A DNA stretch of 64,000 nucleotides from an uncultured delta proteobacterium. GTDB taxonomy: Bacteria; Desulfobacterota; Binatia; UBA9968. Under the pieces are notes generated by a model. It ran no database searches, was not told the DNA's origin, and saw only the letters and a program-made list of their open reading frames with translations. Below are positions 12,210 through 44,468 of the stretch, in pieces. Numbering within the stretch: position 1 is the first letter of the stretch; the number at the start of each line of letters is the position of its first letter. Location of the stretch: contig CAWDHA010000014.1 of the NCBI GenBank assembly GCA_963801935.1, positions 6,608 through 70,607 of the forward strand, in the 5' to 3' direction. The position numbers and the translations under genes are program-made.

Positions 12210-12232
12210 AGTCGAGACGGTAATCGGAGGTT

Positions 12233-13078: not shown

Positions 13079-13099
13079 TGTCTGCGAGGACTCGTTCGC

Positions 13100-14630: not shown

Positions 14631-14723
14631 CTCATCACATTAGTCAAAAGTCTTTTGCTGCCGGTTGTGAAATGGTCCGTCCAAAGAGCAGCGCTCTCCC
14701 TGGACGCTGGGGAGAATTTTTCG

Positions 14724-16784: not shown

Positions 16785-16786
16785 AA

Positions 16787-17245: not shown

Positions 17246-17257
17246 TAGAGAGGGATC

Positions 17258-20014: not shown

Positions 20015-20043
20015 TTCGGCTTGGCCTGCGGGAGGAAAAAACT

Positions 20044-20940: not shown

Positions 20941-20944
20941 GGCG

Positions 20945-22486: not shown

Positions 22487-22619
22487 TACCGAAAACGAAT
22501 GGCATCAAGGGCAGGGAGTAAAGACGAAAAGACGAGATCCGGCACGCTTTGCGCTTGCGCTTAGCACTTTGCGAGTAACCGAGCGAAGCGGCTCGCTGCT
22601 CGATCTGCTTCGGTGAATA

Positions 22620-23620
22620 ATGCAGGCTAGCAACTTGATCCTGGCGGGAGACATCGGCGGAACGAAGACCCACATCGCGCTCTTCGCGCTCAACGGCGAC
22701 AAGCTCAAAGTCGAGGTCGAGAAAACTTTTGCGAGTAAGCAGTATTCCGGACTCGAATCTGTCTTGCAGGAATTTTTGGCAGCCCGCGACTACCGAGTCG
22801 GCAGCGCTTGTTTCGGCGTGGCCGGACCGGTCGTCGATGCCTCGGTCAAAACTCCTAATCTGCCGTGGTTCATCGACGGTGGGCAACTCGCGAAAGCGCT
22901 GAACCTACCATCTGTGGCTTTGCTGAACGATCTCGAAGCCGCCGCTCTGGGCATCTTTACTCTTGAGCCTCACGAGTTTCTTCTCTCAACCCGGGCAACG
23001 CTCGGCGGCCGGCCAACAAAGCGCTGATTGCCGCCGGTACCGGTCTGGGTGAAGCTCTGCTCTACGATGATGGCCGCCAATACCATGCGAGCGCGTCGGA
23101 AGGGGGGCACGGCGACTTTGCGCCGCGCGACGATGGCGAAATCGAGTTGCTACGCTACCTGATGCGCAAGTTCGGCCACGTAAGTTACGAGCGGGTGGTT
23201 TCCGGTCCCGGCATTGCGAACATCTATGAATTTCTCTGCGCCAGCGGCCGCTATGTCGAGCCGCCGGATTTTAAAGAAAAACTCGCGGCCAGCGCCGATC
23301 CGAGCGCGTTAATTTCTCAAGCCGCATTGGCCGGAGAACTTGAGATCTGCGTTAAAGCACTCGATCTGTTTGCGTCGATCTATGGCGCGGAGGCCGGCAA
23401 CCTTGCGCTCCGCGCCAAGGCGATCGCCGGCATCTATATCGGCGGCGGCATCGCGCCAAAGATACAGAAAAAACTCAACGACGGCTCGTTCATGCGCGCG
23501 TTTGTCGAGAAGGGCCGCTACCAAGAGTTTGTCTCGGCCATCCCGGTTTATCTCGTCTTGAACGAAAAAACCGCGCTCCAGGGGGCGGCTTACCACGCCG
23601 CGTTTCGTTCCCATGGCTGA
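22620..23620 (+). pseudogene. glk: Glucokinase, frame-broken by a 1-nt indel near 22975-22990
   Basis: The N-terminal part LAGDIGGTKTH... is in frame 0 and stops at 23025-23027. Homology continues in another frame (…LNPGNARRPANKALIAAGTGLGEA… then ORF 23147..23620). Confidence 0.75.
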
Positions 23621-24359
23621 GCGCGAAATCGCCATCTACCGTGATCTTGAAGAGCTCAGCCGAGATGCGGCTGAAAAGTTTATTGGCCTGGCCGAGCGGG
23701 CGATCCGAGATTCCGGACGCTTCAGCGTGGCGCTTTCCGGCGGCTCGACGCCGCAGACTCTTTACCAGCTTTTGGCCGAGCCGGCTTATTCGGAGCGATT
23801 GCCGTGGCAGCGCGTCCATTTTTTTTGGGGTGATGAACGCGCCGTGCCGCCGGATCATCCGGAGAGCAATTATGGCATGGCGCGAGCGTTGCTGCTGTCA
23901 AAAATTCCTTGCCCGGATGAGAATATCCATCGTATGGCCGGAGAAAAAGAACCAGAGCTTGCCGCTGCCGAGTACCAGAATACTTTGCAAGTTTTTTTTG
24001 GTCTTGCACCGGGTGCATGGCCGCGCTTGGACCTGATGCTTATGGGCATCGGCGAAGATGGCCACACGGTTTCGCTCTTTCCCGATAACGATGCGCTCGA
24101 AAATCGCCAGAATTTGGTTGTGGCACCCTATGTGAAGACCTTGAACTCCTACCGCTTGACCTTGACCTTACCGCTGATCAATCACGCCGCGAATATCTGG
24201 TTTCTGGTGGCGGGGGCGAGCAAAGCGGCCGTCTTGGGCCAAATACTGAAAGCCGACGGCGCTGCCAGCAAAATCCCCGCCGCGAGAGTCGATCCAATAA
24301 GTGGACATTTGGTGTGGTTGATTACGCAGGATGCTGCCGCCGGTTCGCCGTCCCGTTAA
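23613..24359 (+). CDS. pgl: 6-phosphogluconolactonase
   Basis: VALSGGSTP and FFWGDERAVP motifs. The gene overlaps the glk end by 8 nt. Confidence 0.85.
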   Translation: MAEREIAIYRDLEELSRDAAEKFIGLAERAIRDSGRFSVALSGGSTPQTLYQLLAEPAYSERLPWQRVHFFWGDERAVPPDHPESNYGMARALLLSKIPCPDENIHRMAGEKEPELAAAEYQNTLQVFFGLAPGAWPRLDLMLMGIGEDGHTVSLFPDNDALENRQNLVVAPYVKTLNSYRLTLTLPLINHAANIWFLVAGASKAAVLGQILKADGAASKIPAARVDPISGHLVWLITQDAAAGSPSR

Positions 24360-26404: not shown

Positions 26405-28069
26405 ATGACTCAAGAGTTTACGACAGAGGAAAGCGAAAGTCTCGCGCCGTTTTTCACTAATCTCGACAGAAACATCTTCGGTCTCAAACTGCCGCAGGAG
26501 GTTGCCGGCGCGCTGTTCTCGCGTTACAGCCGCTCGAGCAAGAGCCTGCGGCGCACTTTTCTCGACGAATTTCTCGGCGACCCCGAGCTCGAGCTCAAAG
26601 GTTTGATCGGGGCGCAGACTTCCGCCAGTGGCGACAGCGCGGCGCTCAAGAAAGCGCGCGCGTTCTATGACCGCGTACTGGTTGGCTACGGCGACGACTC
26701 GGTCGCGCAATTGGGCGGCGCACATATCGCCTGCGAGAACATTTCCAACGTTGCCGCGAAGCTTCTGGAAGACGCGCGCATCGGCATCGCGCCGCTGGAG
26801 AAATCGACGCGCTACGTGCGTTTCGACCAGAAAGACGCGAACGGCGATTATCTGTTTTGTCGCGAGCCGAAGATCATGGCGTCACGCCACCGCGATGAGT
26901 ATCTCCGTGTCATGAATCTGCTTTTCGACACGTATTCGCGTCAGATGGAGCCGATGCTCGAATGCATCGCCAGGTCGCTTCCCATTGAGCAAGTGGAAGT
27001 AAGAGACCCGGCGACCGGCAAGGGACTGAGCTACGATGCGGTCAAGAGCGATGACCGCCTGAGACGCTGGGCGGACACGGCTTATCGAGCGACGGTGCGG
27101 GCGCACGCCTGCGACGTGCTGCGCAGTTATCTGCCGGCCGCGACTTTGACCAACGTCGGCATCTTCGGCGTCGGCCAGGCCTTTGAGTATCTGATCAGCA
27201 AAATGTATTCGCACGAGCTGAGCGAGGCGAAGGATCTGGCAGCGGCGATGCACGGCGAGCTCAACCAGCTCATCCCGTCGTTTGTGAAGCGGGCGCAGTT
27301 CAATGAATATTTGGCTGACACATCGACGATGGCAAAACAGCTCGCGCAGAAGTGCTTGAAGGCTGGTCCCGTGAACACCACCGGACCGGTGACGTTGATC
27401 GACTATGACGAGCAAGCCGAAGAAAAAATCATCGCCGCGATTCTGTACCCGCACGCGCGCCACCCGCTAGAGCAGCTTCGCCAAGTCGCCGCCGGAATGA
27501 CCCACGTGCAGCGGCGCCAAATACTACAGGAGCACTTCGCAAAGAGGCGTAACCGCCGTGATAAACCGGGCCGGGCCTTCGAAAACGTTTATTACACATT
27601 CGATGTTCTGGGTAATCTCGGCCTCTATCGCGACCTTCACCGCCACCGAATTCTTACTCAGGAGCGCCAGGAGTTTACGACGGCCCACGGCTACGACACG
27701 CCGCCGGAAATAGAAGAGGCCGGCTTCAAGGACGAATTCGATGAATGCATGAAGCAGGCGACGGGACTCTATGAAAAGATCCACCGCGATCTTCCCATCG
27801 AATCGCAATACATTGTCCCGTTCGCCTACAAGGTCCGCTGGTACATGAAAATGAACCTGCGCGAAGCTGTGCACATGTGCGAGCTCCGCACCATGCCCCA
27901 AGGTCATCCCGATTATCGCTTCGTCTGCCAAGAGATGTGGCGCAAAATTCAGGAAGTCCACCCATCGTTAGCCGAGTGCGGCAAGTTCATTGACCGGAAG
28001 AGCTATCGTCTTGGACGACTGCAGTCCGAGATGCGCACGGAGTACAAGAAGTCCGCCTGGGAGAAATGA
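26405..28069 (+). CDS. Double-length ThyX-like (FAD-dependent thymidylate synthase family) protein
   Basis: 554 aa. The ThyX-type motif is in the C-terminal half (YRDLHRHRILTQERQ), with a degenerate counterpart in the N-terminal half (ALFSRYSRSSKSLR). Confidence 0.65.
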   Translation: MTQEFTTEESESLAPFFTNLDRNIFGLKLPQEVAGALFSRYSRSSKSLRRTFLDEFLGDPELELKGLIGAQTSASGDSAALKKARAFYDRVLVGYGDDSVAQLGGAHIACENISNVAAKLLEDARIGIAPLEKSTRYVRFDQKDANGDYLFCREPKIMASRHRDEYLRVMNLLFDTYSRQMEPMLECIARSLPIEQVEVRDPATGKGLSYDAVKSDDRLRRWADTAYRATVRAHACDVLRSYLPAATLTNVGIFGVGQAFEYLISKMYSHELSEAKDLAAAMHGELNQLIPSFVKRAQFNEYLADTSTMAKQLAQKCLKAGPVNTTGPVTLIDYDEQAEEKIIAAILYPHARHPLEQLRQVAAGMTHVQRRQILQEHFAKRRNRRDKPGRAFENVYYTFDVLGNLGLYRDLHRHRILTQERQEFTTAHGYDTPPEIEEAGFKDEFDECMKQATGLYEKIHRDLPIESQYIVPFAYKVRWYMKMNLREAVHMCELRTMPQGHPDYRFVCQEMWRKIQEVHPSLAECGKFIDRKSYRLGRLQSEMRTEYKKSAWEK

Positions 28070-31176: not shown

Positions 31177-31221
31177 CCGGGAGCCGCGCGCAGACCGTCA
31201 TTCCGATAGAAAGACTCTCCG

Positions 31222-31620
31222 ATGAAAAAGATTCTGAGCGTTCTAAAAGCCGAGAGCGGTCACTGGGTCGGTGATGGCTTTCCCGTGCGCACGCTTTTTT
31301 CGTATGACGGCTCAGCCGAACAGCGCAGCCCTTTTTTACTGCTGGATTATGCCGGGGCAACGGAGTTTCCGCCGTCCGAAGCTCCGCCGCGCGGCGTCGG
31401 CACACATCCCATCGCCGCTTCGAAACCGTAACCGTAGTTTACCAGGGCGAGCTTGAGCATCGTGATTCCGCGGGTAACCACGGTAGCATCGGCCCCGGCG
31501 ACGTTCAGTGGATGACCGCGGCGTCGGGAATACTGCACGAAGAAAAACATTCGCGCGACCTCACCAAACGCGGCGGCACTTTGGAAATGGCGCAGCTCTG
31601 GGTGAACCTGCCAGCGCAGT
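31222..31620 (+). pseudogene. Pirin-family gene, frameshifted and 3'-truncated
   Basis: MKKILSVLKAESGHWVGDGFPVRTLF...SPFLLLDY is followed, in another frame, by [25 protein letters not shown]...[16 protein letters not shown]...QLWVNLPAQ. Similarity then ends, at about half the normal pirin length. Confidence 0.75.
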
Positions 31621-31830
31621 CTCTATCTCGCTGCCGCAATCGCGCTTCAGTTCCCGTTGGTAACGGCCGATGCCAAATTTTATCGCGCCGTCAGCAAAGG
31701 CCCCTTCGCAGCGCATCTTGTTTGGGTCGAGGACATCTCGCAATAGACTTATGAGAAACGTAAAAGACCAGCCGGCGACTCCGTCCAGCCAGAACGCAAG
31801 CGTCCCCGTGCCGGGGCGATAAGCTTAGTA

Positions 31831-31915
31831 GGTTCAAAAAGTTCCAGCAGTTCAATCGCTACGCTCGGGTCAAAGCGTTTCAACGAATTTAATGCTTTCG
31901 ACGTTTTGAATCTTC
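31831..31915. repeat. GTTCAA-type short-tandem-repeat hairpin
   Basis: GGTTCAAAAAGTTCCAGCAGTTCAATCGC...GCGTTTCAACGAATTTAATGCTTTCGACGTTTTGAATC. Confidence 0.55.
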
Positions 31916-31975
31916 CTCACCCGGCGCTTAATTTGCTACATTGTTTCTCTGGTTTCCCCGGACTATAAACTATCC

Positions 31976-33250
31976 ATGCGCTTGGAACTCGGCTGCTTCT
32001 ATATAAAAGACGTTCGCTTCGCTGCGCGGACTGTCATCGACAATGGTGTGCTGACCATCAACCGCGCGGAAGTCACCACGCTGCTCCAACAAGAAGCGCT
32101 GTTCGAACGCGTCGAAATCGAGATCGCTCACCCCGGCGAATCCTGCCGCATCTTGCACGTCTTGGACGTTCTCGAACCGCGCTACCGCTTGAATGGGCCA
32201 AACTTTCCCGGCGCCCTTGACGGCAACGGCCTGGTCGGCGACGGCGCGACTCGCGCTTTGAAGAACGTTGCCGTGATCGAGACCGATCAGACAGCGCCGC
32301 GCTCGCGCAGCCTGATCGACATGAGCGGGCCGGCGGCGGACTATTCGCCCATCGCCAACACGCATAACGTCGTCCTGCTGGCGTATCCCAAAAAAAACGT
32401 CGATAAAAATGACTATCGTTTAGCCGTCAAGAAAGCCGGTCTCAAAATCGCTTCCTGTCTCGCCGCCGCGGCGCAGGATTTACAACCTGACGAAACCCAG
32501 ATCTTCGAACTGCCGCCGGTAGCGGCGAATCAGGGGCCGAAGGAGCTGCCGCGCATCGCTTATATTTTTCCCATGCACTCGCACCAGCATCCGACCCAGC
32601 AGAAAGAGACGGTCTTTTACGGCAGCAACATCCAGGGCTTCATGCCCACCGTCGTCCATCCCAATGAAATTCTCGACGGCGCGCTGATGTTTTCCTACTC
32701 GGCATTTACCTGGTTTGCGCAGAACCATCCGGTGATCCTGGAGCTCTACCGCCGCCATGGTAAAGATCTCTGGTTCGCCGGCGTCGTCCTCACCGTGGCG
32801 CCAGCGGTGGTGTCGGAAAAGGAACGCAACGCATTTCTCAATGCCCGGCTCGCCAAGGAAGTGCTGAACGCCGACGGCATCCTCGCGACTAAAATCGGCG
32901 GCGGCGCCGTCGATACCGACTTGATGATGACCTACACGCGCGCTGAAGAGATGGGCATGAAGGCCGCGTTGATCATCATGGAGCGTTATCCCGACACCGG
33001 CATCACCTTCGTGCCGGAAAATGTCAATGCGCTGGTCACACCCGGGCTGACCCGCGACGCGATCACCCTGCCCGCGGTCGACCGCGTCATCGGCGGCGAG
33101 ACCTTGCACCTGGATAATTCCAATCCGGACAATACCAATCCGGCCATTGTTCCGCTTCCGGCGAAACAGGAAATCACCGTCTGGATGGGCGACCTGGTCG
33201 GCGCCATCAGCCAAACCGGCGCGTCACGGCTGACGACGTATATGAGTTAA
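31976..33250 (+). CDS. GrdE/PrdA-family protein (glycine/sarcosine/betaine reductase component B alpha/beta-like)
   Basis: 424 aa with the N-terminus MRLELGCFYIKDVRF...GVLTINR...IAHPGESCRILHVLDVLEPR and a central ...GFMPTVVHPNEILDGAL.... The gene pairs with a GrdB-like ORF. Confidence 0.65.
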   Translation: MRLELGCFYIKDVRFAARTVIDNGVLTINRAEVTTLLQQEALFERVEIEIAHPGESCRILHVLDVLEPRYRLNGPNFPGALDGNGLVGDGATRALKNVAVIETDQTAPRSRSLIDMSGPAADYSPIANTHNVVLLAYPKKNVDKNDYRLAVKKAGLKIASCLAAAAQDLQPDETQIFELPPVAANQGPKELPRIAYIFPMHSHQHPTQQKETVFYGSNIQGFMPTVVHPNEILDGALMFSYSAFTWFAQNHPVILELYRRHGKDLWFAGVVLTVAPAVVSEKERNAFLNARLAKEVLNADGILATKIGGGAVDTDLMMTYTRAEEMGMKAALIIMERYPDTGITFVPENVNALVTPGLTRDAITLPAVDRVIGGETLHLDNSNPDNTNPAIVPLPAKQEITVWMGDLVGAISQTGASRLTTYMS

Positions 33251-33251
33251 G

Positions 33252-33388
33252 AAAATCCGAAACTCCAAATCCGAAACAAATCCAAATGTTCAAGATTCAG
33301 GAAAATTTCAAACCCGCCCGTTTTGGATTTTGAAATTTGGCATTTGACTTTATTTATTTCGGATTTAGCGCTTCGGATTTTGCATTTT
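33252..33388. repeat. Imperfect palindrome built from AATCCGAAA-type short repeats
   Basis: AAAATCCGAAACTCCAAATCCGAAACAAATCCAAAT...TTTGGATTTTGAAATTTGG...TTTCGGATTTAGCGCTTCGGATTTTGCATTTTG. Confidence 0.7.
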
Positions 33389-33418
33389 GCAGTAACTAGA
33401 GTTTGGGAGTCATAAGAC

Positions 33419-34708
33419 ATGAGTCGAAAAATTCGCGTCGTTCACTACTTGAATCAATTCTTCGCCCAAGTCGGCGGCGAGGACAAAGGCGATGTCGGGC
33501 CAACCGTTAAAGCTGGTGTGATTGGTGCCGGCCGGGCGCTGCAGCAAGCGCTCGGCGAAGACGCCGAAGTGGTCGCGACGATTTATTGCGGCGACAACTA
33601 TTTCGCCGAGCATCAGGACCAGGTCATTTCCGAACTGCTCCAGCGAACAGCGGAATTCACGGCCGATCTACTCATCGCCGGACCGGCCTTCGAGAGCGGC
33701 CGTTACGGTGTCGCCTGCGGCGCGATTTGCCAAGCGGCGCAGCAAAAGCTCGGCATCGCCAGCGTTGCCGCCATGGATGAAGACAACGTCGGCGCCGGTT
33801 TGTATCGCAAAAATATTTACATCGTCAACTCCGGCGCGACCATCGCGCGCATGGTGCCAACTCTGCAACGCATGGCAGCTCTGGCATTGAAACTCGCGCG
33901 CCATGAAGCGGTCGGCAAACCGGCGGACGAAGGCTACCTGTCGCGCGGCATCAAGCGCAATGAATTCGCCGCCAAGCCGCCCGCCGAGCGTGCCGTCGAT
34001 ATGTTGCTCGCCAAGCTGGCCGGAAAAAAATTCGACTCCGAGATCGCCGCGCCGAAATTCACCAGCGGCAAACCGGCCGCGCCGCTTGGCGATTTGAAAT
34101 CGGCGGTGATCGCCCTGGTCACCGACGGCGGCCTGGTGCTGGAAGGGAACCCGGATAACATAGAGCCGGGACGGCCAACGCGTTTCACGACCATTCCGAT
34201 TCACAAAGTGAACACCCTTGCCGCCGACAAGTACGACGCCGTCCACTCCGGCTACGACACCGCCAGCGCCAACCTGGACCCCAATCGGCTGGTGCCCCTC
34301 GACACCATGCGCGAGCTCGCCCGCGAGGGCGTCATCGGCGCCGTCCATGAATTCATTCATTCCACCGGCGGCGCCCACGCCGCGGTGGATAACGCCGTGC
34401 AAATCGGCCGGCAAATCGCCGACCGGCTGAAAGCCGCCGGCGTCACCGGTGTGATCCTCACCTCCACTTGAGGCTCCAGCACTCGCTGCGGCGCAGCGAT
34501 CAGCAAGGAAATCGAAAAGCTGCAAATCCCGGTAACACAGATCTGCACCATGATTCCGGTGGCCAAAGAGGTCGGCTCGCTCCGCGCCATCGCCGCCGGC
34601 GGCATCGTCAGCCCAACCGGCAATCCCGAACTGTCACCGGAAAAAGAAAAACAGTTCCGGCGAGAACTGGTTTTGCGCGCATTGCAGACGCTACAGCAAG
34701 AAGTCTGA
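33419..34708 (+). CDS. GrdB-like selenoprotein (reductase protein B family) with Sec at codon 351
   Basis: MSRKIRVVHYLNQFFAQVGGEDKGD... then ...GVTGVILTST-[TGA 34469-34471]-GSSTRCGAAISKEIEKLQIPVTQICTMIPVA.... The frame stays open for 78 more codons to TGA at 34706-34708. Confidence 0.75.
34483..34499 (+). promoter_or_regulatory. Candidate bacterial SECIS hairpin
   Basis: UCGCUGC-GGC-GCAGCGA starts 11 nt after the UGA. It has the same GGC loop as the hairpin after the peroxiredoxin-like UGA. Confidence 0.4.
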
Positions 34709-34716
34709 GGCTAAAC

Positions 34717-34851
34717 ACAAAATCCAAATCTTGAAATCCGGAACAAATTAGAATGACTAAACTGCGGAAATCCCAAACCAGTCAGTTTTGAATTTTGCGC
34801 TTCGAATTTGACTTTAATTTGTTTCGGATTGGCTTCTTGGGATTTCGAATT
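34717..34851. repeat. Second AATCC(A/G)AA-type imperfect palindrome
   Basis: AAAATCCAAATCTTGAAATCCGGAACAAATT...TTTGAATTTTGCGCTTCGAATTTGAC...GTTTCGGATTGGCTTCTTGGGATTTCGAATT. Confidence 0.7.
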
Positions 34852-34870
34852 CTGCCTTCATGGAGTTCTT

Positions 34871-35869
34871 ATGAGACGAATCCTGTTGCTCGCAATCATC
34901 TTTTGTTTTGCCGGTTGGGAATCGTCTCTTCCTGCCGCCACTGTCGAAGACAACCTGATCGCCGGCGCTAAAAAAGAAGGCGCGCTGGTCCTTTACCTTT
35001 CCACCAACCTTACCGATGCCAACGGTTTGGTCCAGCTCTATAAATCCAAGTATCCCTTCGTCAAAGTCGACATGTTTCGCGCCGACAACGAGAAACTGTT
35101 GAATCGCATCCTGACCGAATCGGTGGCCAACAGGTTCAATGGCGACGCGATCATGATCAGCAGTTTCGAAGTCCGCGTGTTGTTGCAGAAAAAGCTTCTG
35201 CAACGCTATGTTTCGCCGCACGCCAAATACTATCCCGAAGGCTTCACCGATAAGGAAGGCTATTGGACCAGCGTTTACTCGATACCCCGGGTCATCGCCT
35301 ACAACACCAATCTCGCCAAGCCCGACGTCGCGCCGAAGAGTTGGGAAGACATACTCCAGCCGCGTTGGAAAGGCGGTTTTGGCCTGTCCGATAGCGCTAC
35401 CCTTTGGTACACCGGCTTCATGAAATATCTCGGCGAAGAGAAAGGCCGCGACTTCATGCGCAAGCTCGCGACTCAGAAGCCGGCGTTTCGCGACGGCGAA
35501 AGCATCGTCATGCAACTGCTCGCCGCCGGCGAGTTTCCTCTCGGTATGGTTTACTCGCACCAAGTGGCAACCCTGAAGCGGCGCGGTGCGCCGGTCGACT
35601 GGGTGCGCACCGCCCAACCCATCGTCACCGGCTTAAAACCCCTGGGCATCAGCGCCAAAACCCAAAATCCCAATGCAGCCAAGCTGTTCATTGACATGGT
35701 CCTATCAAAAGAAGGCCAGGAGCTGATCAAGAGCTTCAACCGCATCCCCGACCGCGGCGACGTCACCTCCGAGTTGAAAGAGGGCCTCAAACTCTACCCG
35801 GCTGATCCGCGCTGGGGCGACAGCTATGCAAAACATGTCGAAGAGTTTCGTGAGATATTTTTTAAGTAA
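34871..35869 (+). CDS. Periplasmic solute-binding protein (family-1 ABC type, iron/polyamine-like), orphan
   Basis: Signal peptide MRRILLLAIIFCFAGWESSLPAA and a PBP-type layout. No permease or ATPase gene is adjacent. The ATG at 34871 is preferred over 34808. Confidence 0.65.
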   Translation: MRRILLLAIIFCFAGWESSLPAATVEDNLIAGAKKEGALVLYLSTNLTDANGLVQLYKSKYPFVKVDMFRADNEKLLNRILTESVANRFNGDAIMISSFEVRVLLQKKLLQRYVSPHAKYYPEGFTDKEGYWTSVYSIPRVIAYNTNLAKPDVAPKSWEDILQPRWKGGFGLSDSATLWYTGFMKYLGEEKGRDFMRKLATQKPAFRDGESIVMQLLAAGEFPLGMVYSHQVATLKRRGAPVDWVRTAQPIVTGLKPLGISAKTQNPNAAKLFIDMVLSKEGQELIKSFNRIPDRGDVTSELKEGLKLYPADPRWGDSYAKHVEEFREIFFK

Positions 35870-36257: not shown

Positions 36258-37457
36258 ATGTTCGATCGCCTTCGCTCGACCGCGCTGACAAGATTCATCC
36301 TGCTTTATGCCGCCATGTATGCAGCATTCGGAGTCGCTTCTCCATTTCTACCTGGCTTTATCAACGCGCGGGGGTTGCCGCCCGAGCAACTCGGGCTCGT
36401 GCTTGGCGCCGGCACGGCCGTGCGCTTGCTGACGGCGCCGCTCGCGGGCCGCATCGGCGACTTGATCCAGTCGCTCCGCATCGTACTCGTCGTCTGTACC
36501 GCGCTTGCCGCTTCGGTGACTTTGGGCTATCTCACGGCGCAGGGATTTTGGATTGTGCTTGGGGTGAGCTTGCTGCATGCCGCGTCCCTGGCGCCCATTA
36601 CCATTTTAGCGGATGCACTGGCGCTCGGGTCCGCCTCTTCGCCGCCGAGCGGCAGCCGGCGCGGCTTCGAGTATGGATGGGTGCGCGGCACCGGCTCGGC
36701 TGCTTTCATCTTCGGCACTTTGCTGTCCGGGCAGGTGGTCAGCGCATTTGGCCTCGACCTAATCATTTGGCAACAGGCCTTGCTGCTTGGCACGGCAGCT
36801 CTTGCCGCGATCCTCGTGCCGGAACTGAGTCACGATCGCACAGTCGATGCCGTGGGAGCGCCGGTAGGCGGTGTCATCATTCTGCTCCGGCTGCCGATGT
36901 TTCGGCAGCTTGTTGTTGTGGCAGCGCTTATCCTCGGCAGCCACGCCATGCATGACGCATTTGCGGTTATCCGCTGGAGTGCCTCAGGCATCAGCCCGGC
37001 TATCGCGAGCGTGCTTTGGTCGGAGTCGGTCGCTGCAGAAGTGCTCGTGTTCTTCATGATCGGCCCGCCGCTCGTGACGCGCCTGACGCCGGCCGGCGCG
37101 CTCGCCGTCGCGGCCCTGGGAGGCATACTGCGGTGGGCAGTAATGGCGCAAACAACCGATGCGCTGGCGCTTGCGCTAGTGCAGCCGCTGCACGGCATCA
37201 CCTTTGCGCTGCTTCATCTCGCCTGCATGCGTCTGATCGCAGAGACCGTGCCGCCAGGTCTCGAAGGGACGGCGCAGGCGATCTACGGCACGGTCGGCAT
37301 TGGGGTAACGACGGCATTGCTCACCCTTGCCTCCGGCGTGCTCTATGCGCGCCTGGACGCGCAAGGGTTTTGGATCATGGCTGCGCTGTGTGCGCTTGCC
37401 TTCCCGTTGACCTGGAAGCTGAGGCCAGCTGGGTCCGCCGAAAGCCGCAGTCAATAA
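36258..37457 (+). CDS. MFS transporter (MFS_1_like / HcaT-like)
   Basis: 399 aa with about 12 predicted TM segments and the N-terminus ...FILLYAAMYAAFGVASPFLPGF...LAGRIGD. Confidence 0.75.
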   Translation: MFDRLRSTALTRFILLYAAMYAAFGVASPFLPGFINARGLPPEQLGLVLGAGTAVRLLTAPLAGRIGDLIQSLRIVLVVCTALAASVTLGYLTAQGFWIVLGVSLLHAASLAPITILADALALGSASSPPSGSRRGFEYGWVRGTGSAAFIFGTLLSGQVVSAFGLDLIIWQQALLLGTAALAAILVPELSHDRTVDAVGAPVGGVIILLRLPMFRQLVVVAALILGSHAMHDAFAVIRWSASGISPAIASVLWSESVAAEVLVFFMIGPPLVTRLTPAGALAVAALGGILRWAVMAQTTDALALALVQPLHGITFALLHLACMRLIAETVPPGLEGTAQAIYGTVGIGVTTALLTLASGVLYARLDAQGFWIMAALCALAFPLTWKLRPAGSAESRSQ

Positions 37458-38993: not shown

Positions 38994-40091
38994 ATGAAAA
39001 AGAGCCGAACCCAGTGGCGGACAAGGATGCTGTTCTGGATGGCCGTGTCAGTCGGCCTAGCACCGGGCCTTGCGCATACGCAGAATAATTTTTATGCCGG
39101 CAAGACGGTTACGGTGATCCAGGGAACCGAGGCCGGCGGCAGCTCTGATATGTTGACCCGCGCGGTTCTGCCTTATCTGAAAAAGTATATCCCGGGGGAG
39201 CCGACCGTCGTCTCTGAATACATGCCGGGCGCCGGCGGGCTCAAGGCGGTCAACCATGTTTACAAAAACGTCCGGCCCGATGGTCTCACGATCGGCCGCG
39301 CCGGCGGCGCGCTGGTGACCAATGCCGTGCTCGGAGAGAACGGCGTCCTGTACGACATCAACAAGCTCATTTACCTCGGCTCACCTCACAAGACCTATCA
39401 CTGGGTTTTCATCACGCGGCGCGAGGCCGGTCTCAAAACCATCGCAGCGCTCCAATCCGCGAGCGGATTTCGCATCGGCGCCCAGGCCGTCGGTCATTCA
39501 AATTATTTTGTCGGCCGGCTCTTCGCTTATCTAATCGGCATCAAGGATCCCAAAATGATCGTCGGCTACGGCGGCGCCGAACTGGACCTCGCCTTGACCA
39601 AGGGGGAGATCGATGGCCGCATCAACAACGCGGACACGATGCTTACGCGCAACGCCGATTTGTTGGCCAACAACACCATCGACGTCCACGCGATCATGGA
39701 GGTGCCGCGCGGCTTGAAGCACGAAAAGTTTTCCAACTTGCCTGAAATCACCGCGTTCGCAAAGTCGGAAAACGAGCGCAAGTTACTTGACATGGTAAGC
39801 GCCTTTCGCCAGTTCGGCTCGCCGTTCTTCCTGCCGCCGGGCACGCCAAAGGAACAGGTCAAGATTCTTCAAGAGGCGATGGTCAAGACCTTTAACGATT
39901 CGGCTTTTCACAAAGATTACAAAAAGTTTACCGGCGACGAAGCGTCACCGCTCATGCCGCATGAGATGGAGAAATTGGTAAATGAGATGCCGCGCGATGC
40001 GGAAATCGTCGAGCTGTTTAAGAAGTTAAATGGCGCCGGTCCGATGCCGGTACCGGTAGAAAGAAGGTTCCAATCGTTCGAGCCGTTATAA
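38994..40091 (+). CDS. TctC-like tripartite tricarboxylate transporter substrate-binding protein, paralog 1
   Basis: Signal peptide, then FYAGKTVTVIQGTEAGGSSDMLTRAVLPYLKKYIPGEPTVVSEYMPGAGG...RPDGLTIG. It lies in a locus with tctA and tctB. The C-terminal tail runs into a repeat. Confidence 0.7.
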   Translation: MKKSRTQWRTRMLFWMAVSVGLAPGLAHTQNNFYAGKTVTVIQGTEAGGSSDMLTRAVLPYLKKYIPGEPTVVSEYMPGAGGLKAVNHVYKNVRPDGLTIGRAGGALVTNAVLGENGVLYDINKLIYLGSPHKTYHWVFITRREAGLKTIAALQSASGFRIGAQAVGHSNYFVGRLFAYLIGIKDPKMIVGYGGAELDLALTKGEIDGRINNADTMLTRNADLLANNTIDVHAIMEVPRGLKHEKFSNLPEITAFAKSENERKLLDMVSAFRQFGSPFFLPPGTPKEQVKILQEAMVKTFNDSAFHKDYKKFTGDEASPLMPHEMEKLVNEMPRDAEIVELFKKLNGAGPMPVPVERRFQSFEPL

Positions 40092-40127
40092 TCGTTCAAA
40101 TCGTTCGTCGGTTCACGGATCATGAGT

Positions 40128-40157
40128 GTAGGGGCGGGTTTTGAACCCGCCCTCTCC
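40128..40157 (+). repeat. Shared hairpin GTAGGGGCGGGTTTTGAACCCGCCC (copy without T-tract)
   Basis: The same stem occurs at 47016-47040, 48826-48852 and 60208-60233. Confidence 0.7.
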
Positions 40158-40567
40158 CCGTATCGCGCACGGTTCCGGTCAAAGTCGTGTTGAAGAGATT
40201 AAAAATCCCTCTAAATCTCCCTTTACAAAGGGAGACTTTCTATTCTCGCCCCTTCAAGAGAGTGTGTCGCGATGTCATTCCGAGGCCTTTCGACTTACTC
40301 GGATAAATGCAGCCGAGGAATCTCATCTTGGTCACAGTTTGAAAAGACGAGATCCTTTTCACCGATTGCGACGCATTCCGTTAAAGGGGGAGAAGGCGGG
40401 ATTTGGGCTAGAGCTAGACGTAGTAGAGGAACGGCACGCCATAGCCTACCCTTTGACTTAAAGAATTCTACTGATAGGTTCTGGCTGCAAAGGAGCGGCG
40501 AGCGCTATCCGCCGTATTGATTCCACTCGTGCCCCATTCATTTCATCCAGACAAAAGGAGAACGGCC

Positions 40568-41644
40568 ATGCGGTTGAGTAGATCGAGGACAACACCCGGA
40601 TTGGGCTCAACTCTTCTCGCCCTTTATTTACTATGCTTTTTTCCCGCTTCCGGTATTTCACAGGAATCATTTTTTAAAGGTAAGACCATCACGATCGTTC
40701 AGGGGCGAGATCCCGGCGGCACCGGCGACCTCCGGGTAAGAGCGCTAGTCCCGTTTCTGCAAAAATATATTCCTGGTAATCCAACCATAGTGATGGAGTT
40801 TATGCCCGGCGGCGGCAGCCGCAAGGCAGGGAACTACATGTTTCGCTCGGCGCGTCCGGATGGGCTCACGATCGGCAACCTGAGCGCCGGCATGGTTTCG
40901 CTTGCGGTGCTGGGCGAGACGGGAGTCCTGTACGATCTCGACAAATTTCATTATCTCGGTTCGCCCTACAGCAGTTATCATTCGGTTTTCATGAGCCGCA
41001 AAGACGCCGGTTTTAGCAGCATTGAAAAACTTCGCGCCGCCACCGGCGTTAAAGTCGGCGCGCAGTCGCTCGGCTTCTCCACTTACAATGAGGGCCGTCT
41101 GTTTGGTTACATGCTCGGCTTGAATGAGCCGCTTTTTATCGCCGCGTTTGGCGGCGCCGAGCTCGATCCGGCGCTGATGCGCGGCGAAATCGACGCCCGC
41201 GCCACCGGACCTGACACGATTCTGCAGCGCAATCGCGACTGGGTCGAAAAAGGCCTGGCCGATATCCATGCGATCATGGAGACTCCCAAGGGCGATAAGC
41301 ATGCGCATCCATTTTTCGCCAAGCTTCCCGAGATCGAAAGCTTTGCCAAGAACGACCGCGAACGCAAAGTGATTGCATTGCAGCGCGCTTTTCGCGTCAC
41401 CGGCTCGCCTTTCATTCTGCCGCCGGGCACGCCCAAGGATCGAGTCGAGATTCTCCAGGAGGCTTTTCGCAAGACCTACCGGGACCCGGAGTTCTTCAAG
41501 GAGTACAGGAAACTTACATCCGATGATCCTTCGCCGCTGCTGCCGGAGAATCATGAAAAGGCGATCAGGGAAATTCCGCGCGAGCCCGAAGTCATTGAGC
41601 TCTTTAAAAAGCTCGCCGGGCCGGCGAAACTGCCGCCGCGGTAG
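40568..41644 (+). CDS. TctC-like substrate-binding protein, paralog 2
   Basis: MRLSRSRTTPGLGSTLLALYLLCFFPASG..FFKGKTITIVQGRDPGGTGDLRVRALVPFLQKYIPGNPTIVMEFMPGGG. AAGGAG lies upstream of the ATG at 40568. Confidence 0.75.
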   Translation: MRLSRSRTTPGLGSTLLALYLLCFFPASGISQESFFKGKTITIVQGRDPGGTGDLRVRALVPFLQKYIPGNPTIVMEFMPGGGSRKAGNYMFRSARPDGLTIGNLSAGMVSLAVLGETGVLYDLDKFHYLGSPYSSYHSVFMSRKDAGFSSIEKLRAATGVKVGAQSLGFSTYNEGRLFGYMLGLNEPLFIAAFGGAELDPALMRGEIDARATGPDTILQRNRDWVEKGLADIHAIMETPKGDKHAHPFFAKLPEIESFAKNDRERKVIALQRAFRVTGSPFILPPGTPKDRVEILQEAFRKTYRDPEFFKEYRKLTSDDPSPLLPENHEKAIREIPREPEVIELFKKLAGPAKLPPR

Positions 41645-41950
41645 AGTAGTGCGCGTTCGATGGGGACTTGTTCTGACGTCATCCGGCCTTGCCCCCGCGA
41701 AAGCTGGGGCGCGAGTGACCCCCCTCTTTCTCTCCCCCTTTGCTAAGGGGAAGAAACAGTGGGGTTCCAGATTCCCGCTTCCGTGGGAACGACGATTGAA
41801 GGCTGGCTTTCCTAAAGTAAAAACAGTGATTCGCCGCGTTAGACTTGGTTCAATGTTCAAAGTTCAAGGTGAAGCTCTCAGGTATCAGCTTTCAGCACTC
41901 GCCTCCGGGCCCGAACGCTGATCGCTGAAAGCTACAGCGGGAGGCTCGCG

Positions 41951-43011
41951 ATGAAAATAAAAATGATGAATCGACTTATCTTTGCAGCGCTGTTAACGGA
42001 GCTTTTGTTACTCCCCGGCCGGCTTCAGGCGCAGGCAGACTTTTATCGCGGCAAGACGATTAGAATTGTGCACGGGCGCGACGCCGGCGGCTCGGGAGAC
42101 CTGCGGGTAAAAGCGCTGGTGCCGTTTCTGCAGAAATACATCCCCGGCAATCCGACCATCGTTCATGAGTTCATGCCGGGAGGCGGCGGTCGGAAGGCCG
42201 GCAATTATATTTTTGGACTCGGCGGCGCCCGATGGATTGACCATCGGAAACGCCGGTAGCGGCATGGTGTCGAGCGCGGTTCTCGGTGAAACCGGCGTGC
42301 AGTACGACATCGACAAATTCATTTTCCTTGGCTCGCCCTATAGTTCCACTCATTATTTTTTCTTGACGCGCAAGGAAACAGGCCTGACGACCTGGAGAAA
42401 CTGCGGTCAGCACAAGGCGTGCGCGTCGGCGCGCAGTCGGTCGGCCATACCTTTACAATATCGGCAGGCTCTTCGCCTGGGTTTTGCCGCTCAAAGACCC
42501 CAAGTTTATCAGCGGCTATTCGACTCCTGAGCGAGACGTCGCTTTCCTGGCGGGCGAACTCGACGCGCTCGGCACCACCGACGATCATCTGGTGCGCAAT
42601 CCCGACTGGATACGACGAATAAAATTGATCTGCACGCGTTGATGGAAGTTCCGCGCGGAAACAAGTATCCGCGCTTCGGTCACCTGCCCGATATCGAAAC
42701 CTTCGCCAAGTCGGATCGAGAGCGAAAAGTGCTGGCGATGTTTCGCAATCTGCGGCTTACCGGTTCGCCGTTTTTTGCATCGCCACGAACTCCCGCGGAC
42801 CGGATCGAAGTGCTCAAGCAGGCGATGAGCAAGAGCCTCACTGACCCCGAGTTTTACAAGGAGCACAGAAAGCTTGTGAGCGAGGAGCCCGACGCCGCTT
42901 TTGCCGGACGAAAATCAAAAGGCAATTCGCGAATTGCCTCGTGATGCTGAGACCATCGCGCTTTTTAACAGGCTCGCCGGACCGGCGCCGCTGCCGCCGT
43001 GCGCTGAGTAA
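41951..43011 (+). pseudogene. TctC-like paralog 3, multiply frameshifted
   Basis: Homology to the paralogs runs through frames 2>0>2>1>0>1 (e.g. ...NYIFG|SAAPDGLTIGNAGSGMV...|GVRVGAQSVGHTF|YNIGRLFAWVLPLKDPKF...|MEVPRGNKYPRF...|...LFNRLAGPAPLPP). That is at least 5 frame changes. Confidence 0.85.
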
Positions 43012-43095
43012 TAAAGTTCCAATAGTTCCAGACGTTTCAGACGTTCAACTAGATTGGCGGAGCGGAGCTACCGCCGGTAAGAGTGGAGACTCGCC

Positions 43096-44152
43096 ATGAA
43101 CATAAAAATCATGTCAGGGATTTTATCCGCGGCGCTTTTTATTCAGCTCGTCTTGCTGCCTGATTCTTCTTTACGCACAGGCCGATCTTTTATCGGGGCA
43201 AAACAATCACCATCATTCATGGCCGGTCGGCGGGGGGATCGGGCGATTTACGGGCGCGCGCGGTGACGCCGTTTCTAACCAAGTACATCCCGGGAAATCC
43301 CAACATCGTGCACGAGTACATGGACGGTGCCGGCGGGCGCAAGGCGGCCAATCACATTTTCAGTAGCGCTCGTCCCGACGGCCTGACCATTGGCAGCGTC
43401 GGCGGCGCGTGGTCGAAAGTGCCGTGCTCGGCGAAATCGGCGTGCAGTACGATCTCGACAAACTTCATTTCGTCGGCTCACCTTACAGCCGTACGCACTA
43501 TGTCCTTTTGACGCGCCGCGAGGCCGGCTTTCGAACCCTCGATAAACTCCAGCAAGCCTCGGGCGTGCGCTTGGGCTCTCAAGCGGTCGGTCACACCAAC
43601 TATACCGTCGGCCGGATTATGGCTTGGCTCCTCGGGCTCAAAGAGATTAAGGAAGTCATCGGCTTTGCGAATCCGGAGCGCAGGGCCGCGTTGATACGCG
43701 GCGAGATCGACGGCTTGGCGAGCTCGGATGATATTTTGTCTCGCGATACCGACTGGCTTGAGAAAGATCTAATCGATCTTCATGTCATCGTTGCCATTCC
43801 CAGAGAGGAAAAACATCCGCGTCTTTCCCATTTGCCGGAGCTCGACGGCTTTGTCAAAACCGAGCGCGAGCGCAAGCTGCTGACCATGTTCCGCAATTTC
43901 AGATTGACCGGCGCGCCATACATTCTTCCTCCAGCCATGCCCAAGGATCGGATAGAAATCATCAAAGAAGCCCTGCGCAAGAGTTTCAAAGATCCCGAGT
44001 TTTTCAAGGAATATCGCAAGGTCGGCGGCGAAGATCCGACTCCGCTTACGCCGGAAGCAAATGAGAAGGCGATCCGTGAGTTGCCGAGGGACCGGGAGGC
44101 GGTGGAACTTTTCAAAAAATTCGCCGGCGCGGGCCCGTTGCCGGCGCGCTAG
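43096..44152 (+). pseudogene. TctC-like paralog 4, with at least 2 frameshifts
   Basis: The ATG at 43096 gives MNIKIMSGILSAALFIQLVLLP.... Homology shifts at about 43190 (T-run) to FYRGKTITIIHGRSAGGSGDLRARAVTPFLTKYIPGNP... and again at about 43408 to ORF 43409..44152. Confidence 0.7.
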
Positions 44153-44160
44153 GGCTTGCG

Positions 44161-44232
44161 GCCGTTCAGCGTTCAACGTTCAAAGTTCAATGTCCGCGCC
44201 CAACTTTGAACCTTAAACCTTGAAATTTGAAC
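44161..44232. repeat. GTTCAA-type short-tandem-repeat hairpin
   Basis: GCCGTTCAGCGTTCAACGTTCAAAGTTCAATG...CAACTTTGAACCTTAAACCTTGAAATTTGAACC. Confidence 0.75.
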
Positions 44233-44468
44233 CGAGCGCTGCCGGCGCGCTAACCTCAACGTTAAGGACGCTTCAACAAGTAGGGGCAGTTTCAAACCGG
44301 CCTCTTTGTCAACGCATTATAAACGCTCTTTTGCTTCTTGATTGCTGTTCACTTCTGTGGCATCCCTAGTGCGCTTGAGAACGGCGCAGGGCCCGGTTCC
44401 GGAGCTGACGAGAGAACAACTTCGCAATTACCGTTGCTAAAGGAATCAGCAACCAAGGAGCAGCCAAA

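Follow-up and report, generated by a model that had tools for sequence, protein, structure and literature searches.

The window, that is the whole 64-kb stretch of DNA analysed here, comes from an uncultured member of the Binatia (Binatota). Near its middle, at positions 31976–34708, lie two genes in the order alpha then beta, whose products are predicted to form a functional alpha/beta pair, a two-gene selenocysteine (Sec) enzyme of the glycine/sarcosine/betaine-reductase ‘protein B’ family (Table 1). The alpha subunit is GrdE-like and matches PF09338 over residues 1–420 (E = 3e-96, 323 bits; cut-off 22.2), and the beta subunit is GrdB-like and matches PF07355 (E = 2.6e-125, 418.8 bits; cut-off 22) as well as TIGR01918 (459.2 bits; cut-off 65.45). 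Both subunits are therefore members of their families, and the GrdE-like/GrdB-like pair with Sec that a preliminary description of this DNA had proposed is borne out by these matches and by the conservation of the TGA codon described below.

Table 1. Features of the locus, with positions counted from the first letter of the window.
Feature	Position	Strand	Remarks
grdE-like gene, alpha subunit, 424 aa	31976..33250	+	PF09338 match; predicted unprocessed type
AT-rich palindromic intergenic element, between both genes	33245..33400		30-nt arms, 87% complementary; -43.6 kcal/mol
grdB-like gene, beta subunit, one 429-residue selenoprotein	33419..34708	+	PF07355 and TIGR01918 across in-frame TGA
Sec codon, Sec351	34469..34471	+	motif LTST-U-GSSTRC; TGA conserved in related loci
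SECIS hairpin, 7-bp stem, GGC loop	34483..34499	+	starts 11 nt past TGA; covariation
Second AT-rich palindromic copy, downstream of grdB-like gene	34705..34862		-42.9 kcal/mol; similar to first element
Periplasmic solute-binding protein, start codon uncertain	34808..35869	+	Pfam SBP_bac_6/8/11/1; homology from ~34895
MFS transporter, 3-phenylpropionate-transporter-like	36258..37457	+	NCBIfam PRK11128, 214 bits

Together with its close relatives the pair forms a tight clade known from metagenomes of soil and sediment, and the members are labelled Candidatus Binatia or ‘delta proteobacterium’. The branch always carries Sec and counts more than 120 database clusters that are at least 78% identical; for its most distant members, synonymous divergence is saturated or nearly so. 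Clade members already carry the NCBI pipeline name ‘glycine/betaine/sarcosine/D-proline family reductase selenoprotein B’, and others are named ‘glycine/sarcosine/betaine reductase component B subunit [Candidatus Binatia...]’. Our literature search found no paper linking Binatia with glycine reductase.

The surroundings of the pair are variable. The solute-binding protein and the MFS transporter are present downstream as first described, and the conserved association with both that was to be sought in other neighbourhoods is not seen: the solute-binding protein is directly downstream in 18 of the 38 clade loci with enough flank, and an MFS homolog adjoins the pair in no related locus. The MFS transporter was accordingly dropped as a conserved partner and probably lies outside the system. 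The solute-binding protein is of the iron/phosphonate type, with a weak match to PhnS2 (68 bits); the nearest structures solved are those of proteins that bind Fe3+ or pyridoxal-5-phosphate, not betaines, and such relatives, with Fe3+ or phosphorylated cofactors as ligands, offer no firm clue to a substrate. Relatives of the palindromic element occupy the same spacer in three other loci (L004, L007 and L022) and lie elsewhere in three more (L012, L001 and L009). A scan for sigma-70 promoters and terminators around the pair gave nothing over shuffle expectation, and the upstream region 31177–31975, considered as a conserved element or a small partner ORF, is unconserved and contains pirin-like fragments.

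The beta gene runs for 350 codons to an in-frame TGA, and its frame then stays open for a further 78 codons until the TGA at 34706–34708, exactly as had been noted before (junction: ...GVILTST-(TGA)-GSSTRCGAAISKEIEKLQIPVTQICTMIPVAKEVG). One reading of this arrangement is that the first TGA is a true stop, so that the locus encodes a 350-residue non-selenoprotein or a decaying relic, with the downstream frame open by chance or coding for a separate peptide. Nearly all of the more than 120 database homologs (at least 78% identity) are indeed called at 350 aa, which speaks for such a stop, and the few called at other lengths (347–393 aa) are consistent with an alternative start and would thus end at the same TGA. 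In almost every database entry, gene callers cut the protein short at this codon. The comparative data nevertheless contradict a true stop. The match to TIGR01918 runs unbroken across the TGA from residue 6 to 429; a TGA occupies the Sec column in 86/86 related loci checked (77 by motif scan and the rest by hand); and a Cys codon was seen there in none of the related loci covering the site. Barring probable homopolymer errors in long-read metagenome-assembled genomes (MAGs), these loci display neither replacement of the TGA by a sense codon nor decay of the frame beyond it. The extension is moreover under stronger purifying selection than the part that precedes it, with dN/dS values of 0.05–0.12 after the TGA versus 0.10–0.18 before it in comparisons within the clade; the idea that homologs end here with an unconserved extension is thereby refuted. 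The alpha subunit is likewise under purifying selection (dN/dS of 0.06–0.15 against clade members).

The hairpin downstream of the TGA points the same way. On its own sequence its fold is unexceptional (z = -0.38), which would suit a true stop, but in a comparison of 37 distinct homologs 96.5% of the cells in the helix are paired, with both-side (compensatory) changes in three of the seven pairs (26 cells). Its covariation score was reached by 0/500 shuffles, and slid controls fall to 18–66% paired. The 7-bp stem and GGC loop of the preliminary description are thus reproduced, now with covariation across the family. A scan of the window at Rfam gathering thresholds returned no matches, so the hairpin is covered by no curated RNA family. 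Together with the universal TGA, the compensatory changes leave a true stop or relic with next to no credibility. The beta subunit instead combines an in-frame UGA at the ..TST-U-G.. column with a SECIS hairpin, the combination by which the superfamily is recognised, and the UGA would be decoded as Sec351 with the aid of the hairpin. A tRNA scan of the window found no tRNA-Sec; the universal TGA, together with a second TGA-containing gene (of the UGSC family) in related loci, would imply that the lineage possesses Sec machinery.

Within this framework the residues around the Sec deviate from the family pattern. The motif of the beta subunit is U-G-S-S-T-R-C rather than the canonical UxxCxxC: the +3 Cys is Ser, as had been suspected, and of the two Cys that at +6 (Cys357) alone remains. 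Elsewhere the subunit is conservative: of the 96 columns without variation in GrdA/GrdC-linked GrdBs, it and its clade retain 86 (90%), including that of Cys357, which gives no sign of a lost GrdA interface. Searches against PDB sequences found no match for the beta subunit and none for the alpha subunit, even at E = 1, and neither subunit family has a solved structure by this measure.

The alpha subunit deviates at the site where GrdE is processed. The pyruvoyl-forming Cys of Clostridioides difficile GrdE is Cys242 (PMC9908766). In the alignment this column is a Ser in the alpha subunit (context DGALMFSY-S-AF), invariant in the clade, and a 7-residue deletion beside it has removed the ‘VSACDKN’ segment including the second conserved Cys. 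The Cys that the preliminary description did not see in the central part is thus lacking at this column, and neither the self-cleavage Cys nor the second conserved Cys that characterise the GrdE/GrdG proproteins is found. The subunit appears from its sequence to be of the unprocessed kind, devoid of the Cys to form a pyruvoyl group, as are GrdI and FarE, which PMC10838667 gives as unprocessed alpha subunits without the Cys pair. Alpha subunits of this kind have been tied to substrates that do not require a Schiff base (GrdI and FarE; PMC10838667). Among the loci compared, many GrdA/GrdC-linked pairs likewise have no Cys in this column, which instead holds Y, P, D, E, R or S.

In principle, the Ser in the Cys242 column might itself give rise to a pyruvoyl group, which counts against an unprocessed subunit. 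The alpha proprotein would then cleave itself at Tyr-Ser, with the Ser aligned to Cys242 as the source of the pyruvoyl group, and the substrate would be an amine, primary or secondary, for instance glycine, sarcosine or some other amino acid; the proposal stands independently of the question of partner genes. The Ser lies exactly 8 residues past the conserved DGA motif, the same spacing as the Cys of canonical GrdE, and is invariant in the clade, and the sarcosine subunits GrdG and GrdF are the top NCBIfam matches of the pair. All other pyruvoyl enzymes known to us use Ser. The invariance is weak evidence, however, the clade being at least 70% identical, and the column holds Y, R, D, E, P or H in other groups of the family, so that the position is generally not a nucleophile. 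The four groups that do carry Ser there have no flanking motif in common, and the loop deletion takes out the second conserved Cys. A serine-derived pyruvoyl group is thus improbable in our judgement, and an unprocessed alpha subunit is assumed in what follows.

Comparison with the characterised enzymes places the pair inside the family and outside each of its named types. The beta subunit stays below the equivalog cut-off of the GrdB model TIGR01917 (410.9 bits; cut-off 602.2) and below those for GrdF (471.8 bits; 800), GrdH (413; 775) and PrdB (78.4; 300). For the alpha subunit the best NCBIfam models are GrdG (261 bits; cut-off 780) and, in second place, FarE (230 bits; cut-off 675). Sarcosine reductase GrdF/GrdG therefore provides the highest-scoring curated models for both subunits, at scores far under the cut-offs. 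When published motifs were compared by eye, the GrdB motif AHGGxD[QTAP]...RV[IL]PxD...TxGNxTxV was unmatched, the beta subunit reading VHSGYDT ... RLVPLD ... STGGAHAAV; the GrdF motif (IHGGYDR ... TTGTGT) was not matched either, and the segment GPAFESGRYG likewise fitted neither the GrdB nor the GrdF motifs (PMC9751293).

With glycine reductase protein B of Clostridium sticklandii, Peptoclostridium acidaminophilum and C. difficile the pair shares both Pfam families, the alpha–beta order, the Sec column LTST-U, the SECIS hairpin and the retained invariant columns of GrdB, and identity to a canonical Thermobrachium operon is ~47% for beta and ~34% for alpha. It differs from GrdE/GrdB in its Sec motif (canonically U-G-T-C-T-R-C) and in the loss of Cys242 and the second Cys from alpha, and, unlike glycine reductase loci, has no grdA between its genes and no grdCD, trxAB or grdX nearby. 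Betaine reductase GrdH/GrdI also has a Sec beta subunit of the protein-B family, and PMC10838667, citing Bednarski 2001, describes GrdI as no proprotein and as having no pyruvoyl group; unlike GrdH/GrdI, the present pair has no betaine transporter or OpuAC-type binding protein nearby. D-proline reductase PrdA/PrdB is a homologous selenoprotein/proprotein pair, though the homology is distant (alpha scores 23 bits against PrdA), and PrdA is a proprotein with a Cys-derived pyruvoyl group, unlike alpha here; prdC-, prdD- or prdE-type genes are absent here. The PrdA/PrdB enzyme functions without GrdA, protein C or substrate-level phosphorylation (PMC13188914).

A further precedent is the fluoroacetate reductase FarE/FarB of Cloacibacillus porcorum, whose farACEB operon is encoded apart from grdA and grdCD and has an MFS transporter in its neighbourhood; FarB is without CxxC and FarE without the Cys pair, and FarEB has been proposed to feed common proteins A and C (PMC10838667). 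The pair resembles FarE/FarB in being unlinked to grdA and grdCD, in an alpha subunit without the Cys pair and in a degenerate CxxC after the Sec. It lacks an adjacent radical-SAM farC, however, has no conserved MFS transporter beside it and does not have the marks of a fluoroacetate reductase, namely a FarE score above the cut-off and an operon with the farA antiporter and the radical-SAM gene farC; and the FarEB host, an amino-acid-fermenting member of the Synergistota with many protein-B paralogs, differs from the soil Binatia lineage that is the host here. We conclude that the pair is a genuine variant, so far uncharacterised, of a known enzyme family, each of its odd features having a precedent there, and that it is very probably a Sec-dependent enzyme of the protein-B type whose substrate differs from those already characterised.

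The most distinctive property of the clade is the absence of linked partners. GrdA, GrdC, GrdD, TrxA and TrxB were found nowhere in the window by six-frame tblastn with seeds from a canonical operon, by Pfam and NCBIfam scans covering ~45 of the larger ORFs or by a search for the CGPC motif, in agreement with the preliminary description. A weak TrxB-like tblastn match at 10791–11714 (22% identity) was rejected as a partner: it belongs to a 750-aa fusion protein, as its pyridine-nucleotide-disulfide domain, and this protein is encoded in an arsenic-related cluster 22 kb off. A TrxB-like gene by a UGSC selenoprotein upstream of the pair was also set aside as a general partner, occurring in only four loci (L008, L086, L093 and L107); L093 appears identical to L086. 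Across the window and 49 further clade loci (637 kb in total), GrdA, GrdC, GrdD or thioredoxin is linked to the pair in 0/50, so that the lack of linkage is no peculiarity of a single locus. The operon-level complex, with grdA, grdC, grdD and trxA/trxB beside the protein-B genes, is therefore absent here. By comparison, GrdA, GrdC, GrdD or TrxA is linked in 40 more distant loci of the GrdB tree, with partners present at most loci of 44–50% identity. Further unlinked pairs occur in Burkholderiales, in Planctomycetota and in a second Binatia clade.

Unlinked partners need not mean missing partners. The clade may be a distributed protein B, with the Se-carboxymethyl intermediate passing to GrdA and then to GrdCD to yield acetyl phosphate, thioredoxin serving as reductant and all the partner genes lying in other parts of the genome; such an arrangement has been proposed for FarEB (PMC10838667). 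Groups near the clade in the GrdB tree, for example L025, L032, L024 and L053, combine an alpha subunit without Cys with adjacent GrdA and GrdC, and L025 has the identical U-G-S-S-T-R-C motif; Cys losses alone thus do not imply a different selenium acceptor. In one Methylomirabilia MAG, an unlinked pair (L061) coexists with a locus that has GrdA and GrdC linked (L041). These loci, the FarEB precedent and the 86 retained columns all count for partners encoded at a distance and against a stand-alone enzyme. Against distant partners stands the lack of linkage in all 50 loci over synonymous divergence up to saturation. The best 80 of 542 GTDB matches include no canonical grd locus labelled Binatia, which is weak evidence, and Binatota have been described as aerobic methylotrophs in the main genomic survey, which is silent on Stickland-type metabolism and mentions neither glycine reductase nor selenium (PMC8262859). 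On balance we regard distant partners as a real but minority possibility. Of the preliminary description, which saw a component-B-like reductase or lyase with an unknown substrate and selenium acceptor, the Sec-containing pair, the missing Cys residues and the unlinked partners are upheld; a different selenium acceptor does not by itself follow from these anomalies, which have precedents.

We infer a scheme, modelled on D-proline reductase, for the kind of substrate, the resolution of the intermediate and the reductant. The pair would bind a small alpha-substituted carboxylate with a leaving group that needs no Schiff-base activation, for example a quaternary amine (betaine-type). The selenolate of Sec351 would attack the alpha carbon and expel the leaving group, forming a Se-carboxyalkyl intermediate. 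Resolution of this selenoether within the enzyme is judged slightly likelier than transfer to GrdA, given the lack of linked GrdA, GrdCD or thioredoxin in all 50 clade loci. As in D-proline reductase, the selenium would be attacked by a Cys, here the retained Cys357 (U+6); the free acid would be released and a Se–S bond left, to be re-reduced by a general thioredoxin-type system with no formation of acetyl phosphate. Known GrdHI enzymes act with GrdA and GrdCD. Counted in favour of the scheme, besides the evidence for Sec decoding, are the retained invariant columns including that of Cys357, the Cys-less alpha subunit, scores below the GrdB, GrdF, GrdH and PrdB cut-offs, the unmatched GrdB and GrdF motifs, the 0/50 linkage, the unlinked pairs of other lineages, the description of Binatota as aerobic methylotrophs and the D-proline reductase precedent. 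We give GrdA-independent working of the pair a little less than an even chance. The full proposal, of a GrdA/GrdCD-independent reductase clade abundant in soil Binatia that cleaves an alpha-substituted carboxylate, perhaps betaine-type, to methylamines and free acid by means of a Cys357–Sec351 couple and general thioredoxin, is tentative and somewhat unlikely to hold as a whole.

To our knowledge, nearly all known selenoenzymes of the protein-B type come from anaerobic fermenters of amino acids, where they feed the ATP-making GrdA/GrdCD. The present analysis defines a large, always-Sec branch of protein B from soil and sediment, in a lineage described as aerobic methylotrophs, that is never linked to partners in the loci examined. 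Should GrdA be encoded elsewhere in these genomes, the pair would be one more substrate-specific module. If the genomes truly are without GrdA, the family would have a second mode of action beyond D-proline reductase, and selenium would matter for an unrecognised carbon–nitrogen (or carbon–X) cleavage in soils. A stand-alone enzyme of this kind would place Stickland-type selenium chemistry outside fermentative energy conservation.

Both open reading frames are present, and the TGA junction reads exactly as in the preliminary description, with the frame past TGA 34469-34471 open for 78 further codons to TGA 34706-34708. The proposed placement of the two products as GrdE-like (alpha subunit) and GrdB-like (beta subunit) is borne out by family models: PF09338 (component B subunits) covers the upstream ORF end to end (E = 3e-96), the downstream ORF matches PF07355 (GRDB; E = 2.6e-125) and, once the TGA position is given a residue, its residues 6-429 align at 459 bits, unbroken across the TGA, to TIGR01918 (glycine/betaine/sarcosine/D-proline family reductase selenoprotein B). 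The correct family-level name has already been assigned to the pair by NCBI's pipeline. The beta subunit falls below every function-specific NCBIfam cut-off (bits/cut-off: GrdF 472/800, GrdH 413/775, GrdB 411/602, PrdB 78/300), and the alpha subunit below those for GrdG (261/780) and FarE (230/675). The published GrdB and GrdF motifs (PMC9751293) are unmatched in the beta subunit, which reads GPAFESGRYG, VHSGYDT and STGGAHAAV, and no solved-structure relatives were found for either subunit.

Features in the window and in a related locus (window coordinates unless a locus is named)
Feature	Position	Strand	Description
Upstream ORF (alpha, GrdE-like)	31976-33250	+	424 aa
Downstream ORF (beta, GrdB-like)	33419-34471	+	350 aa, closing at TGA 34469-34471
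SECIS hairpin (putative)	34483-34499		7-bp stem, GGC loop; begins 11 nt past TGA
AT-rich palindromic element 1	33245-33400		about 150 nt, single long hairpin, about -43 kcal/mol
AT-rich palindromic element 2	34705-34862		about 150 nt, single long hairpin, about -43 kcal/mol
Arsenosugar-type cluster, first three genes	7242-14459		ArsM-like methyltransferase; radical-SAM '(seleno)protein' ArsS; 750-aa fusion
Arsenosugar-type cluster, other three genes	7242-14459		DUF547; family-2 glycosyltransferase; DUF2064
Pentose-phosphate cluster, part 1	14655-24359		transketolase, RpiB, 918-aa transaldolase-phosphoglucose isomerase fusion
Pentose-phosphate cluster, part 2	14655-24359		6-phosphogluconate dehydrogenase, G6PD, glucokinase fragment, 6-phosphogluconolactonase
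ABM/UGSC/TrxB-like trio	L086 2503-5605		same arrangement in L093, L107, L008

Searched against 5.8 billion proteins, the beta subunit has more than 120 clusters of homologs at 78-95% identity. Nearly all of these are annotated with 350 residues, and a few of other lengths (347-393 aa) fit alternative starts; gene prediction therefore ends at this TGA. Of 86 homologous loci taken from GTDB genomes and other assemblies, all that span the site have TGA in the Sec column and none has a Cys codon there; an alignable open extension of 78-88 codons follows. In comparisons with nine members of the clade of close relatives, the 350 codons preceding the TGA have a dN/dS of 0.10-0.18 and the 77 codons that follow it one of 0.05-0.12 (the N-terminal value for L017 is an alignment artefact). 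Broken extensions are few (L004 and L020, near 11270, at an A-rich run in long-read MAGs). Frame breaks splitting grdE or the grdB extension were seen in these and two further long-read MAG copies (L012 8577-9870, L083 6639-7914), for example at an A-rich run after 'GNP', and probably reflect sequencing errors in homopolymers, not pseudogenes.

The hairpin described after the TGA was reproduced. Folded alone, its region is of unremarkable stability (z = -0.38), which leaves a SECIS unproven by the single sequence. Across 37 distinct family sequences the hairpin is 96.5% paired, and both sides are altered in three of its seven pairs, amounting to 26 compensatory cells (C-G to U-A; U-A to A-U or G-C; U-A to G-C). 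This covariation was reached by none of 500 shuffles, and pairing drops to 18-66% in controls that shift the 3' partner by 1-3 columns. Some compensatory changes join a synonymous to an amino-acid change (e.g. Arg CGC/Ala GCG to Arg CGU/Thr ACG), as selection on RNA structure predicts. Together with the universal TGA and the selection on the extension, the covariation makes Sec decoding of TGA 34469-34471 secure at the comparative level; by all comparative criteria, the gene pair is real and predicted to be expressed as a selenoprotein. The AT-rich palindromic elements flanking the grdB-like gene on both sides have related copies in the grdE/grdB spacer of other genomes (L004, L007, L022) and at unrelated places (L012 17019-17156, L001 about 12715, L009, L084/L085), and therefore resemble members of a REP/MITE-like repeat family in this lineage.

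Partners were sought by six-frame search of the window and all loci, with GrdA, GrdC, GrdD, TrxB, TrxA and GrdX-like seeds from the canonical Thermobrachium celere operon (L042). As originally suggested, none occurs in the 64-kb window, and neither scanning for the CGPC motif nor comparing about 45 of its larger ORFs with family models revealed a partner. With 32 kb and 29 kb of sequence between the pair and the two window ends, a partner operon lying just beyond them is not a realistic alternative. Linked partners are absent from all 50 clade loci (637 kb in all; 23 came from genomes and assemblies and 27 from scanning metagenomes), and separation from them is thus a conserved property of the clade. 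At 44-50% identity, most loci carry GrdA and GrdC, often with GrdD and TrxB, within a few kb; these partner-linked loci belong to Bacillota, Syntrophomonadaceae, Desulfobaccales, Syntrophales and others. Unlinked protein-B pairs seem to be a wider phenomenon outside classical fermenters: they also occur in Burkholderiales/Betaproteobacteria (L019, L028, L082), Planctomycetota (L036), Methylomirabilia (L061) and a second Binatia clade (L070, L079, L080), some having lost both Cys after Sec (U-G-T-S-T-R-S or U-G-T-S-T-R-G).

The two cysteines first reported as missing are indeed replaced by serine. In the C. difficile alpha subunit, Cys242 was established as pyruvoyl-forming by mass spectrometry (PMC9908766). 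Canonical alpha subunits hold this Cys within 'DGAIVSGN-C-VSACDKN'; the clade invariantly has 'DGALMFSY-S-AF', with a 7-residue deletion and Ser at the Cys242 column. Elsewhere in the family the column holds Y, P, D, E, R, H or S, and many such groups are GrdA/GrdC-linked. A pyruvoyl group derived from the Ser, a question independent of that of the partners, would fit its exact alignment with the Cys; we consider it improbable, as sister groups have non-nucleophilic residues at this column and the loop carries the deletion. After Sec, canonical beta subunits read U-G-T-C-T-R-C, whereas the clade reads U-G-S-S-T-R-C, with Ser for the +3 Cys of UxxCxxC. Other groups have U-G-T-S-T-R-C, U-G-T-G-T-R-C, U-G-T-S-T-R-S or U-G-T-S-T-R-G, and in the homologous locus L025 the exact clade motif adjoins GrdA and GrdC. 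FarB of fluoroacetate reductase lacks CxxC, and the farACEB operon, MFS antiporter included, sits away from grdA (PMC10838667). Each flagged feature thus has family precedent and none alone argues for a new selenium acceptor.

In this family, protein B binds the substrate and its Sec attacks the alpha carbon, expelling the amine or other leaving group to give a Se-carboxymethyl intermediate. In the reductases of glycine, sarcosine and betaine, the Sec of GrdA receives this intermediate, GrdCD turns it into acetyl phosphate and GrdA is re-reduced by thioredoxin; D-proline reductase works without protein A or C and forms no acetyl phosphate. A pyruvoyl-free alpha subunit goes with substrates that can do without a Schiff base, for example betaine and fluoroacetate (PMC13188914, PMC10838667, PMC9908766). 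Clade beta subunits retain 86 of the 96 columns invariant in 40 GrdA/C-linked GrdBs, Cys357 among them, which makes it very likely that the core chemistry is the same; on this basis, Sec351 is proposed to attack an alpha-substituted carboxylate bearing a good leaving group. The evidence on the second half-reaction is balanced. We tentatively favour a stand-alone, Prd-like version, in which Cys357 would resolve the intermediate internally with a general thioredoxin system. Somewhat less probably, the intermediate may be handed to a GrdA encoded elsewhere, as for FarEB; in many bacteria, several substrate-specific protein B complexes feed one common reductase system (PMC10838667).

Only the pair itself is universal across clade loci. 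The suggested conserved association with a solute-binding protein and an MFS transporter holds in part: of the 38 clade loci whose flanks are long enough, 18 have the former directly downstream in the same orientation, some of them only 67-72% identical in GrdB, and the latter adjoins the pair in the window only. The closest solved relatives of the solute-binding protein bind Fe3+ or pyridoxal phosphate, and it is weakly similar to 2-aminoethylphosphonate binders; these relatives yield no clear substrate clue. An Amidohydro_3 protein lies downstream of the pair in 8 of 23 loci and is absent there in the window. An ABM protein, a UGSC-domain selenoprotein and a thioredoxin reductase lie 1-7 kb upstream in L008, L086, L107 and L093 (the last apparently identical to L086), an arrangement that is not general; the thioredoxin-reductase-like gene of L086 scores 311 bits against TIGR01292 (cut-off 343; near-equivalog). 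The UGSC-domain protein (101 + 441 aa) has an in-frame TGA ('GVGH-U-STCAP'), which shows that Sec use in the lineage extends to further proteins; by eye, its Sec surroundings resemble the GrdB Sec region. Just upstream of the pair, window 31222-31754 is a frameshifted or decayed pirin gene, with pirin-like fragments 'GHWVGDGFPVRTLF' and 'QLWVNLPA' in two different frames and no conservation in related loci.

In the wider surroundings, toxin-antitoxin pairs and various catabolic enzymes accompany arrays of orphan solute-binding proteins, TctC-like and others. Orphan solute-binding paralogs (TctC-like, ABC_sub_bind, SBP_bac) form long arrays around the pair at window 38994-46440, with one TctA/TctB membrane pair (44469-46440), and in L001, L002, L084 and L012. 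The window also holds a compact pentose-phosphate/glucose-oxidation cluster and a six-gene arsenosugar-type cluster tied by NCBIfam to selenoproteins in other genomes; its ArsS (TIGR04167, 441 bits) has no TGA in this copy, and its fusion joins a VTT membrane domain to a pyridine-nucleotide-disulfide oxidoreductase. In a 554-aa ORF (26405-28069), a ThyX (Thy1) domain is confined to residues 330-521, and no Pfam family matches the N-terminal 330 residues.

The 90% clusters of the window's GrdB fragment and GrdE include NCBI entries named '[Candidatus Binatia ...', and the closest GTDB loci (best 80 of 542) are MAGs labelled 'uncultured delta proteobacterium' (Microflora Danica), 'Candidatus Binatia bacterium' or 'Syntrophobacter sp. 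SbD2'. Binatota are portrayed in their main genomic survey as aerobic methylotrophs and alkane degraders, with glycine, betaine, sarcosine and selenium unmentioned (PMC8262859), and our literature search found no paper joining Binatia or Binatota with glycine reductase. That the pair would form a GrdA-independent selenoenzyme operating outside Stickland fermentation is conceivable and, in our view, doubtful. New here are a large Binatia clade from soil, which always has Sec and passes none of the function-specific tests, and the clade-wide separation of the pair from proteins A and C.
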